From the NCBI RefSeq assembly GCF_003991155.1, contig NZ_CP031293.1: DNA of 64,000 bases; one strand, given 5' to 3'. This DNA comes from Escherichia coli (GTDB taxonomy: Bacteria; Pseudomonadota; Gammaproteobacteria; Enterobacterales; Enterobacteriaceae). Every line of letters begins with the position of its first letter. Position 1 is the stretch's first letter. Shown here in pieces: positions 14,234 through 17,180 of the stretch. The notes under the pieces are model-generated. The model saw only the letters and a list, made by a program, of their open reading frames with translations, did no database searches and had not been told where the DNA came from. The translations under genes were made by a program, and so were the position numbers.

Positions 14234-14258
14234 GCGCCATCGTTAGATGGCGCTTTTT
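14234..14258 (+). terminator. Rho-independent terminator of ydcL
   Basis: gcgccatc gtta gatggcgc perfect 8-bp stem followed by ttttt. Confidence 0.7.
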
Positions 14259-14259
14259 A

Positions 14260-14749
14260 TCCGGTGCGCCGTAAAACCCCGTCCTTCAGGGCGGGGATAT
14301 AAGGCGCGGTTTTGCACCTGACCAGGTGTTTGCTGTTGTTCAATGTATTGGCGGATGACGGATATTGGCGCACCTCCGCAGCTACTGGCAAAATAGCCAG
14401 GACTCCACAAAACGCCTTTGTAGTAATACCTGACTGCAATATCTGGTCGATCTCGTCGCAGTAACCTACCCGATACGCCTTTGAGGCTGTTTACCAGACT
14501 GGATATCGCCAGTTTGGGAGGTTAGTTAATTAACAAATGGACGTGATCTGGTTCGCCATCCATTTCAACCAGTTCAGCTTCAAAATCAGCACATACATTT
14601 GAAAAGTAAGTGCGTAGTTTTTCTGTCGCGTCATGGTCAAAAATCTGGCGTCGGTATCTGGTGACAAAGACCAGATGAACATGCATCAGGAAAACACAAT
14701 GCCTTCCACGCCGGATATCGGTTTCTTTTTTCACAGACCAAAGTATCAT
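14260..14749 (-). pseudogene. tnpA: IS200-type Y1 (HUH) transposase TnpA, frameshifted
   Basis: N-terminal 75-aa ORF (14522..14749) ends just after the HUH motif (HVHLVFVTRYRRQIF...DHVHLLIN); the C-terminal homology (...LWSPGYFASSCGGAPISVIRQYIEQQ) continues in a different frame downstream. Confidence 0.7.
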
Positions 14750-14756
14750 TTGACCT

Positions 14757-15965
14757 GTGAAACGATTACAGGCATTTAAATTCCAGTTAAGACCAGGTGG
14801 TCAACAGGAGTGTGAAATGAGGCGCTTAGCAGGCGCATGTCGTTTCGTTTTCAATCGTGCTCTGGCACGTCAGAATGAGAATCATGAGGCCGGTAATAAA
14901 TACATCCCTTACGGGAAAATGGCTTCCTGGCTGGTTGAGTGGAAAAATGCCACTGAAACGCAATGGCTTAAAGATTCTCCCTCACAGCCATTGCAACAGT
15001 CACTGAAAGACCTTGAGCGGGCTTACAAAAACTTCTTCCGGAAGCGGGCTGCTTTTCCCCGATTCAAAAAGCGGGGACAGAATGATGCATTCCGCTACCC
15101 GCAGGGCGTTAAGCTCGATCAGGAAAACAGCCGTATTTTTCTGCCGAAACTGGGCTGGATGCGCTACCGGAATAGCCGTCAGGTCACGGGTGTTGTGAAA
15201 AATGTCACTGTCAGCCAGTCCTGCGGTAAGTGGTACATCAGTATTCAGACAGAAAGTGAAGTATCCACTCCGGCTCACCCTTCAGCATCAATGGTCGGGC
15301 TGGATGCTGGCGTGGCTAAACTCGCCACGCTGTCAGATGGCACAGTCTTTGAGCCTGTAAACAGTTTTCAGAAAAACCAGAAGACGCTGGCGAGACTTCA
15401 GCGACAGTTAAGCCGCAAGGTCAAATTCAGCAACAACTGGCAGAAGCAGAAACGCAAAATACAGCGACTGCATTCCTGTATCGCAAATATCCGCAGGGAC
15501 TACCTTCACAAAGTCACAACGGCCGTCAGCAAAAACCACGCAATGATAGTCATTGAGGATTTGAAGGTCAGCAACATGTCAAAGTCAGCAGCGGGTACGG
15601 TCAGCCAGCCGGGGCGCAATGTCCGGGCAAAATCAGGTTTAAACCGTTCGATACTGGATCAGGGCTGGTATGAAATGCGCCGCCAGCTTGAGTACAAGCA
15701 GCTCTGGCGTGGCGGTCAGGTGCTTGCTGTTCCGCCAGCGTATACAAGCCAGCGTTGCGCGTACTGTGGTCATACAGCGAAAGAGAACCGCCTGTCACAA
15801 AGTAAATTCAGATGCCAGGTATGTGGATATACAGCGAACGCCGATGTAAATGGCGCTCGTAACATTTTAGCGGCGGGGCACGCCGTTCTTGCCTGTGGAG
15901 AGATGGTGCAGTCAGGCCGCCCGTTGAAGCAGGAACCCACCGAAATGATTCAGGCGACAGCCTGA
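14757..15965 (+). CDS. insQ: TnpB (IS605 OrfB family; RuvC-like RNA-guided endonuclease)
   Basis: 402-aa ORF; N-terminal KFQLRP...RFVFNRAL; C-terminal zinc finger CAYCGH...CQVCGY and a RuvC-like region. Confidence 0.85.
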
Positions 15966-16004
15966 ACGTAGCAGGGATCCACGTCCTTCAGGGCGTGGAG
16001 GATG

Positions 16005-17180
16005 TCAATATCGGTTTCTGTCAGCGATTAAATTCAACACCACGTAACAAACGCCTCCGGCAATTAATCCCCAAAACGCAGAACCAATCCCGGCCAGCGT
16101 CAATCCACTTGCCGTTACCAGAAATGCCACCACCGCCGCGTCGCGCTCACGCTCATTATGCAGCGCCTGATACAAACTGCCGCCAATGGTACTCAACAGC
16201 GCCAGACCTGCCAGCATCTGGATCCAACTTACGGGCAGGGCAGCCATCATCCCGGTAATGGCACTACCAAACAGACCTGCGAGCAAATAGAAAATGCCTG
16301 CAACGGCAGCGGCCAGCCAACGTTGATCTTTATCCGGATGCGCTTCCGGGCTTTGGCAAATAGCCGCGGTGATTGCCGCAATACCGACGGAATAAACGCC
16401 GAAAGGGGAAAAAACCAGTGCCAGCAATCCAGTAAATACAATTAATGGCGAAACAGGAGCCGAATATCCGGCGGCTTTCATTGCTGCGATACCCGGTGCG
16501 TTTTGCGATGCCATCGTCACCAGAAAAAGGGGGAGTGCAACGCTCAGGCTGTGAGCAAACGAAAAATCAGGGCTAATATAAGTGGGGAGAACGGGTTTAA
16601 AGACAACATCAGTTGTGACAACGTCACCTTGCGCGATAACGATCACGACCCCAATAATCATCGCGGCAATTACCGCATAGCGCGGCGCAACGGCCCTGGT
16701 TGCCAGCCATACCAGCAACATACTGCCACACAACGTAAATTGACCATCCAGGCTCGCAAACGCCTGTAAACCAAAGCGTAATAAAATCCCGGCAAGCATT
16801 GCCGCCGCAAGCGAGTGCGGAATAATGCGCATCAGACGAGCAAAGAGTCCCGTTATGCCGCAGAGGACTATTAACGCGTTGGTGACAATAAAAACGCCGA
16901 TGGTTTCGTTAAGTGTTAGTCCCTGCAATCCGGTGACCAACAAAGCCGCGCCAGGCGTTGACCATGCGGTGAGAACAGGTACGCGATACCATAATGTCAG
17001 AGCCAGCGTACTGACGCCCATTACCAGCCCCAGCGCCGTCATCCAGCCAGAGATTTGTGCAGTGGTGGCTCCGGCGACAATCGCTGCTTGCCAGATTATT
17101 GCCGCTGAACTGGCGTAGCCAATTAATACCGCCAGAAACCCCGCCAGTAGCGTGGGTGGAGGAATAGAAAACAGACGCAT
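16005..17180 (-). CDS. ydcO: BenE-family benzoate transporter homolog
   Basis: ORF 16005..17303; start at MRLFSIPPPTLLAGFLAVLIGY gives 391 aa; polytopic membrane protein. Confidence 0.8.
   Translation of the reverse strand: MRLFSIPPPTLLAGFLAVLIGYASSAAIIWQAAIVAGATTAQISGWMTALGLVMGVSTLALTLWYRVPVLTAWSTPGAALLVTGLQGLTLNETIGVFIVTNALIVLCGITGLFARLMRIIPHSLAAAMLAGILLRFGLQAFASLDGQFTLCGSMLLVWLATRAVAPRYAVIAAMIIGVVIVIAQGDVVTTDVVFKPVLPTYISPDFSFAHSLSVALPLFLVTMASQNAPGIAAMKAAGYSAPVSPLIVFTGLLALVFSPFGVYSVGIAAITAAICQSPEAHPDKDQRWLAAAVAGIFYLLAGLFGSAITGMMAALPVSWIQMLAGLALLSTIGGSLYQALHNERERDAAVVAFLVTASGLTLAGIGSAFWGLIAGGVCYVVLNLIADRNRY

Follow-up and report, generated by a model that had tools for sequence, protein, structure and literature searches.

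Does an insertion sequence that has lost its transposase still encode a guide RNA for its intact nuclease? This question is raised by IS609, an element of the IS200/IS605 family located between ydcL and ydcO in the stretch of the Escherichia coli chromosome analysed here (64,000 nucleotides of contig NZ_CP031293.1, assembly GCF_003991155.1; hereafter the window), in which the Y1 transposase gene tnpA is a pseudogene and tnpB (insQ), coding for a putative RNA-guided endonuclease, is intact. The last 139 nucleotides (nt) of the element (15870–16008), together with the flank from 16009 to about 16025, are probably the omega-RNA (right-end RNA) gene of InsQ. A preliminary description of this DNA had proposed a candidate guide RNA at the 3' end of the element, and the proposal is supported by covarying stems, a copy-specific flank, a transposon-adjacent motif (TAM) with its target at the empty site, mapped RNA 3' ends and an intact RuvC active site. 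The coordinates of all features are given in Table 1.

A covarying RNA fold at the right end of IS609

Loci encoding relatives of InsQ (80 loci, 58–94% protein identity) were fetched, the last 200 nt from 40 of these relatives were aligned, and a consensus fold was computed with RNAalifold; alignments in which the pairing partners were slid by 1–3 columns and 500 shuffles served as controls. The structured region comprised the last 139 nt of the element on the tnpB (+) strand and consisted of four stems (P1 to P4). Compensatory double changes were found at 24 of the 38 consensus pairs, 94.6% of the alignment cells were paired (41–52% in the slid controls), the covariation score was 0.356 (at most 0.10 when slid), and none of the 500 shuffles reached the observed values. 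When the alignment was trimmed and P3 extended, 93.8% of the cells were paired (40–50% when slid), 26 of 37 pairs were compensatory and the score was 0.363, again with 0 of 500 shuffles at this level; across both alignments the slid controls did not exceed 0.126. Pairing was lower on the opposite strand (83.0% versus 93.8%), and because G.U pairs make up 12.5% of the cells the fold is strand-specific. These comparisons argue for a conserved secondary structure of the kind expected of an omega-RNA. The structure lies on the tnpB strand, takes in the 3' end of this gene and extends up to the right-end boundary. With the tnpB stop codon at 15963–15965 and the element end at 16008, the scaffold overlaps only residues 372–402 of InsQ. 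The interval of 15830–16025 given for the guide RNA in the preliminary description holds from 15870 onward, and positions 15830–15869 have no structural support of their own.

In P1, double changes were present at four of the six pairs, with 15–16 sequences switched at three of these, and the compensation runs through coordinated replacements in the C-terminal tail of TnpB (AAGHAV, ARGHRV or RAGHAR; 15870–15886, alignment columns 63–79), suggesting that RNA pairing dictates the protein sequence at this point. The inner helix of P3 showed compensatory changes at all ten pairs, and P4, which is the right-end subterminal hairpin, at seven of nine. The exact hairpin (ccacgtccttcagggcgtgg) occupies 15979–15998; it had been described at 15982–16001, three bases too far to the right. 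Covariation of P4 alone proves little because this hairpin is also a DNA signal for TnpA; P1 to P3, which lie outside the hairpin required by TnpA, covary as well as P4 does, and they do so through amino acid changes. A covariance model of the IS609 RNA identified one site in the window (15865–16008, 154 bits), and no second copy was found by this search in the 64 kb. The fold of the single sequence had a z score of −3.5; its minimum-free-energy structure was dropped, as it pairs the guide with the scaffold and departs from the consensus.

Some relatives carry additional sequence: an extra hairpin of 12–24 nt was present within P2 in L031, L044, L045, L057, L059, L066, L081 and L082 (alignment columns 113–137), and the right-end hairpin was enlarged in L029, L035, L040, L042, L049, L067 and L069. 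As judged from the alignment, the scaffold tolerates insertions at two points, the interior of P2 and the right-end hairpin.

RNA 3' ends beyond the element in K-12

The element of the window differs from that of K-12 at 17 positions, none of them after 15860, and K-12 coordinates are obtained by adding 1488900 to those of the window. In published Term-seq data of K-12 the dominant + strand 3' ends of this region are located at 1504927 (LB, optical density (OD) 0.4) and 1504925 (LB at OD 2.0, and M63), where they are labelled only as 'antisense to ydcO' (Adams et al. 2021, PMC7815308). These ends correspond to window positions 16027 and 16025, i.e. 19 and 17 nt past the element end and 26–28 nt beyond the end of the hairpin stem (15999), and they agree within 2 nt over three conditions. 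No terminator-like site was found at the right end, and given this and the distance of the ends from the hairpin, a terminator was ruled out as their cause. The same study reports a + strand Rho-termination region at K-12 position 1505179 (Rho score 7.1; PMC7815308), so that transcription from the element continues for about 270 nt antisense into ydcO (window 16009 to about 16280; K-12 1504909–1505179), and the mapped 3' ends are therefore processed or protected ends. In line with the RNA from the tnpB 3' region that the preliminary description had called for, the 3' ends point to a stable RNA that terminates some 16–20 nt beyond the right end, in a sequence identical in the two strains. RNAs that overlap the 3' ends of tnpB genes had been noted in E. 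coli K12 data in 2015 (Gomes-Filho et al., PMC4615843). No study of the native RNA of E. coli came up in our literature search for IS609, insQ or ydcM in combination with TnpB.

The predicted guide and its target at the empty site

The element boundaries were obtained by comparison with an empty site in EcN (L001) and a second IS609 copy, that of an O157:H7 strain (L002). The sequence of the empty site is CTTTTTAT/TATCGGTTTC (the slash marks the insertion point) and that of the occupied site TTTAT-IS-TATCGG. Insertion thus occurred without target-site duplication and the empty site is scarless, as is typical of the IS200/IS605 family. The mobile-element feature annotated in K-12 MG1655 (1503161–1504908) has the same boundaries and length (1748 bp), and the O157 copy likewise carries TTTAT directly before its left end. 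Imperfect subterminal hairpins, another hallmark of the family, are present at both ends; they have the same orientation, differ at two positions and are the only two matches in the window, where none were expected.

Since the 3' terminus of the element reads ...GGAGGATGTCAA and ends at 16008, the guide starts at 16009. In all fetched relatives conservation extends through ...GAGGATGTCAA and is followed by complete divergence; after TCAA the flanks diverge at once, copy by copy (70 loci). The predicted guide of 16 nt is therefore the flank TATCGGTTTCTGTCAG (16009–16024), and the insertion-free EcN allele consists of TTTAT followed by TATCGGTTTCTGTCAG, i.e. a TAM beside the target. Where the element is present, TCAA instead of TTAT stands before the guide match, and IS609 would therefore spare its own site. 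As described previously for this DNA, the segment following the element enters the 3' end of ydcO, which agrees with the gene positions and the K-12 annotation. These relations suggest a guide that is specific to each copy and whose match at the empty site is flanked by the TAM.

The left flanks of the relatives read TTTAT, TTTAC or TTGAT. TTGAT, which is the TAM of ISDra2, was observed in the more distant beta-proteobacterial relatives L039, L040, L042, L045, L057, L061 and L066; the TAM has apparently shifted within the TnpB clade to which InsQ belongs. An IS609-like TnpB homologue has been purified and assayed by others, with TTAT as the TAM.

InsQ, a predicted TnpB nuclease with an intact gene

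The full-length tnpB with RuvC-like and zinc-finger motifs noted in the preliminary description was borne out by its open reading frame (ORF) of 402 amino acids, by its Pfam domains (HTH_OrfB_IS605, PF12323; OrfB_IS605, PF01385; Cas12f1-like TNB zinc-ribbon, PF07282) and by an end-to-end alignment with the solved ISDra2 TnpB (E = 2e-55). InsQ scored 380 bits against the NCBIfam model guided_TnpB (NF040570, cut-off 100), its product is named 'RNA-guided endonuclease InsQ/TnpB family protein' by PGAP, and in the K-12 MG1655 annotation it is a 'putative RNA-guided DNA endonuclease InsQ' next to the tnpA pseudogene yncK. Inactivating substitutions in RuvC, which could have spoken against a functional nuclease, were looked for in the ISDra2 alignment and none were present: D183, E267 and D363 are kept, as are the CxxC pairs C334/C337 and C353/C356. 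The corresponding residues of ISDra2 TnpB are D191, E278 and D361. In comparison with 46 relatives, InsQ has retained 66 of 66 invariant and 159 of 162 highly conserved residues, the exceptions being the GTG start, the conservative replacement F24L, and I257V, a change also present in the active O157 copy. With its HTH/WED-REC, RuvC and zinc-ribbon architecture, its D-E-D triad and its zinc finger, InsQ is predicted to be a genuine TnpB.

Comparison with known guide RNAs

A close counterpart is the omega-RNA (or reRNA) of ISDra2 TnpB from Deinococcus radiodurans, reportedly described by Karvelis and colleagues in 2021. Like this RNA, that of IS609 covers the right end as well as the C-terminal coding part of tnpB and folds into several stems, the last being the right-end hairpin, whose tetraloop of the UUCA/UUUA type precedes the guide by about 20 nt; both elements terminate in TCAA and have a flank of about 16 nt as the guide, a 5-nt T-rich TAM at the left flank and an identical catalytic triad. 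They differ in the length of the scaffold (116 nt in ISDra2, 139 nt in IS609) and in the TAM (TTGAT versus TTTAT). For sequence comparison, an ISDra2-like Deinococcus element was used as a stand-in (82% protein identity to ISDra2 TnpB, the closest match in a plasmid collection); its tail after the hairpin reads GGUUCAA, as compared with GGAUGUCAA in IS609. In the cryo-electron microscopy structure, the 116-nt scaffold of ISDra2 has four stems and a pseudoknot, and its overlap with tnpB is confined to the C-terminal coding part, which is dispensable (Nakagawa et al. 2023, PMC10097598).

Among the RNA families of Rfam, searched at permissive thresholds, the only + strand matches were three sub-threshold ones, all to tnpB-associated RNAs: HgcC (RF00062; 22.2, gathering score 50; 15902–16018), sot0042 (RF02656; 17, gathering score 88; 15838–15999) and RAGATH-18 (RF03064; 25.4 bits, gathering score 44.9; 15892–15935). 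The covariance-model search for IS605 guide-RNA scaffolds, proposed earlier as a check, gave no match to the Rfam families IS605-orfB-I and -II. The sotRNAs and HgcC of IS1341-type tnpB genes resemble the IS609 RNA in that a transcript covers the tnpB 3' end and includes a hairpin with a UUCA tetraloop, and E. coli K12 appears among the bacterial examples of the 2015 study (PMC4615843). They differ in that the families rest on archaeal sequences and date from a time when the guide function had yet to be discovered, and the Rfam scores lie far below threshold. In the case of RAGATH-18, from which guide RNAs of IS607 TnpB are derived (Cell Res 2024, PMC11061315), P2 (CCUGUGGAG...UGAAGCAGGAA) matches both ends of the consensus. 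Both are TnpB guide-RNA scaffolds, with this one stem in common, and IS607 uses a serine recombinase in contrast to the Y1 TnpA of IS609.

The IS605-family 'cut-and-copy' system of Geobacillus stearothermophilus is alike in its logic: TAM plus guide equals the scarless donor joint or empty site, one motif serves both TnpA and TnpB, and tnpA-defective elements that keep the RNA and the ends are common (PMC10055086). It differs in that its tnpA and tnpB are co-directional, whereas those of IS609 are divergent, and in that the IS609 studied here is fixed in the chromosome as one copy, whose tnpA is dead and whose native nuclease activity is predicted from sequence.

Proposed mode of action and points against it

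If InsQ uses this RNA, the RNA would be cut out of, or trimmed from, read-through transcripts of tnpB, and bound InsQ would shield the scaffold and about 16–19 nt of guide. The complex would recognise and cut 5'-TTTAT beside TATCGGTTTCTGTCAG, a target that would exist only with the element absent, i.e. after excision by TnpA acting in trans or on an incoming insertion-free allele. Repair of the break from an IS-bearing copy would then lead to retention or copying of the element, as has been shown for Geobacillus IS605 elements (Meers et al., PMC10055086).

Several observations weigh against a functional InsQ guide RNA. The RNA is placed by its mapped 3' ends, and the tie between these ends and InsQ is one that we infer. 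No Rfam family reached its gathering score even at permissive thresholds. With filters off, the covariance model of the IS609 RNA gave a weak match of 9.5 bits at the tnpB 3' end of the ISDra2-like element, which does not establish sequence-level homology to the solved omega-RNA. The GUC of the 3' tail is invariant, and an alignment search found no covarying pseudoknot partner for it: the candidates at 15902–15904 and 15843–15845 are non-covarying or non-conserved, and a pseudoknot of the ISDra2 type was not located here. Excision, the canonical trigger, may be rare when the tnpA in cis is dead. Some TnpBs are inactive, that of Helicobacter pylori IS608 being an example from the assays of Meers et al. 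(PMC10055086), and among occupied loci InsQ shows radical substitutions confined to single loci or lineages (e.g. L211P, C241R and Y336C) and a pN/pS of about 0.4, which is relaxed for a bacterial gene.

Retention of tnpB after loss of tnpA

The last of these points would also fit a decaying relic, in which a recognisable omega-RNA is still made and vertically inherited while the InsQ complex no longer cuts or contributes. We consider this unlikely. Of 5416 complete E. coli genomes, 2044 have a contiguous, i.e. empty, ydcL–ydcO site, and in the others (about 62%) the site is split. O157:H7 is among those with an empty site and has an active IS609 at another location. Thirteen occupied loci were compared (the window, K-12 and 11 others taken at even steps of similarity), a small, similarity-ranked sample whose figures are indicative only. 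The tnpA gene was dead in all 13 loci, as a relic would have it, through at least five independent lesions: Y76* (window and L090), L97* (K-12 and four other loci), E62* (L092), a 5-bp deletion (L087 and L091) and a 1-bp frameshift (L094 and L095). Loss of the natural stop codon (TAG>CAG) was common to all 13 copies and may have been the founding lesion. Decay is also suggested by the pN/pS values and singleton substitutions mentioned above, by a Term-seq signal that is low relative to many other 3' ends in the same table, and by the inactivity of IS608 TnpB in a comparable assay.

Against a relic, insQ was an intact ORF of 402 amino acids in 13 of 13 loci. At the per-base rate of tnpA, which is about one third as long, some 14 tnpB lesions would be expected and none were seen (Poisson P of about 8e-7). 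Nonsynonymous changes in tnpB were significantly under-represented (29 nonsynonymous and 20 synonymous segregating changes, ratio 0.42, binomial p = 0.003 versus neutrality; pairwise pN/pS 0.37), and all family-invariant residues are kept. The density of segregating sites fell from 7.2% in the left end and tnpA to 4.2% in tnpB, 2.2% in the RNA scaffold and zero in the guide, the scaffold being less polymorphic than tnpA (p = 0.027). The combination of at least five independent knock-outs of tnpA with a tnpB that is intact throughout and has a pN/pS of about 0.4 suggests that selection has maintained the nuclease since the transposase was lost.

Much less probable is that the host has taken over the system, with the RNA as an antisense regulator of ydcO or with InsQ as an RNA-guided DNA binder like TldR. 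The guide and the read-through transcript are indeed antisense to the 3' end of ydcO, the transcript continuing about 270 nt into it, and tnpB is preserved at one fixed locus, without a transposase in cis, in about 62% of complete E. coli genomes. However, the RuvC triad is intact, unlike that of TldR-type proteins, which are nuclease-dead and use guides directed at a host promoter; the guide is merely the insertion flank, as for any mobile copy; ydcO gains just one residue; and the 38% of genomes without the element at this site show no sign of compensation. Least credible of all is the absence of any RNA function, with conservation due to TnpA DNA signals and coding constraint and with 3' ends that are insQ mRNA decay intermediates stalled by the hairpin, for although P4 is the TnpA-recognised hairpin, where covariation at the DNA level is expected, and P1 to most of P3 lie within coding sequence, P1 to P3 covary strongly outside the terminal hairpin via nonsynonymous changes (Ala to Arg, for instance), and the fold is specific to one strand owing to its G.U pairs. 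In addition, the 3' ends lie well beyond the hairpin rather than adjoining it and coincide across conditions, and every sub-threshold Rfam match is to an RNA associated with tnpB and on this strand.

It is conceivable, if doubtful, that InsQ and its RNA, maintained by selection at one fixed site during much of the diversification of E. coli and well beyond the repeated death of the transposase, act as an 'allele guard' or drive that cuts insertion-free ydcL–ydcO alleles. Such an allele would arise by excision through TnpA in trans, or arrive by conjugation or transduction from the approximately 38% of strains lacking the insertion, and repair would turn it into an IS-bearing allele. If true, this would be natural RNA-guided homing between strains in the best-studied bacterium.

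Significance of the InsQ guide RNA

A guide RNA for InsQ is not new in kind: it would be part of a standard TnpB/omega-RNA unit, and the element and InsQ are already annotated in K-12. The interest that remains lies in the apparent long-term selective retention of nuclease and RNA and in the ease of testing in K-12. A native unit of TnpB and omega-RNA that is apparently complete is present in E. coli, including K-12; the K-12 annotation has no RNA feature here, and the ends at 1504925 and 1504927 can be re-read as the mature end of a guide RNA. The native K-12 system would offer a tractable setting for the study of omega-RNA biogenesis and of the retention model, with no need for heterologous expression. 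With tnpA lost at least five times and tnpB intact, IS609 is also a natural example of a nuclease outliving its transposase, which bears on the origin of TnpB-only elements and of domesticated TnpBs.

The tnpA pseudogene, mobility in trans and neighbouring genes

The repaired translation of tnpA scored 144.6 bits against the NCBIfam model transpos_IS200 (cut-off 55), which identifies it as a Y1 (HUH) transposase gene, present as a pseudogene only. The preliminary description had it broken by a frameshift. The gene is broken, but alignment with the intact IS609 tnpA of the O157:H7 strain showed no indel in the window copy, and a frameshift was ruled out; codon 76 has been turned into an in-frame stop (TAT>TAA, base 14522), and the natural stop codon is lost (TAG>CAG). 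Frameshifts do exist in the tnpA copies of other strains. The catalytic tyrosine of TnpA presumably lies near the C-terminus, and the stop at codon 76 would fall upstream of it. The element, previously called immobilised, is so in cis, tnpA being dead, and not necessarily in trans: because both ends look intact, TnpA from another IS609 copy could still mobilise it. E. coli genomes contain IS609-like sequence at 3 places each (median), and 575 places are on plasmids; a source of TnpA in trans may therefore often be present for the fixed ydcL–ydcO copy. At the left end, the stop loss (CTA>CTG on the + strand, window 14314–14329) converts CACCTAACCAGGTG to the perfect palindrome CACCTGACCAGGTG.

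Table 1. Features of IS609 and its flanks, in window coordinates.
Feature	Position	Strand	Basis or remark
IS609 element, 1748 bp	14261..16008	+	Empty-site comparison and second copy
TTTAT, insertion target and TAM, abuts left end	14256..14260	+	EcN empty site; O157 copy
Left-end subterminal hairpin CCCCGTCCTTCAGGGCGGGG	14277..14296	+	Near-copy of right-end hairpin
tnpA (Y1/HUH transposase) pseudogene	14318..14749	-	Alignment to intact O157 tnpA
tnpB / insQ, 402 aa, intact gene of predicted RNA-guided endonuclease	14757..15965	+	ORF, domains, alignment
Putative omega-RNA stem P1, in tnpB C-terminal coding region	15870-15875 / 15881-15886	+	Covariation
Putative omega-RNA stem P2, outer helix CCUGU/GCAGG (15892-96 / 15929-33)	15892..15933	+	Variable-length inner hairpin
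Putative omega-RNA stem P3, holds tnpB stop codon	15940-41/15974-75, 15945-47/15967-69, 15950-55/15960-65	+	Covariation
Putative omega-RNA stem P4 = right-end subterminal hairpin, UUCA loop	15978-86 / 15991-99	+	Covariation
Conserved 3' tail GGAUGUCAA, 9 nt, ends at right-end cleavage site TCAA	16000..16008	+	Near-invariant in 40 relatives
Predicted guide segment TATCGGTTTCTGTCAG(CGA), antisense to last ydcO codons	16009..16027	+	Equals target half of empty site
ydcO, BenE-family transporter	16005..17180	-	Stop codon now within IS right end

The gene order in the window is tehA, tehB, ydcL, IS609, ydcO, sutR and rlhA. IS609 inserted directly after the T-run of the intrinsic terminator of ydcL (14234–14260) and within the stop codon of ydcO (16005–16011), which now uses a TGA from the right end of the element and has one C-terminal Tyr added, the coding sequence growing from 1173 bp (empty site) to 1176 bp (occupied site). 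Among the relatives fetched, L015 (NZ_BMTT01000064.1, a 2057-bp contig of a Streptomyces mutabilis assembly) is an enterobacterial-type IS609 relative with 81% protein identity and the same ends, and is probably a contamination or a very recent transfer.

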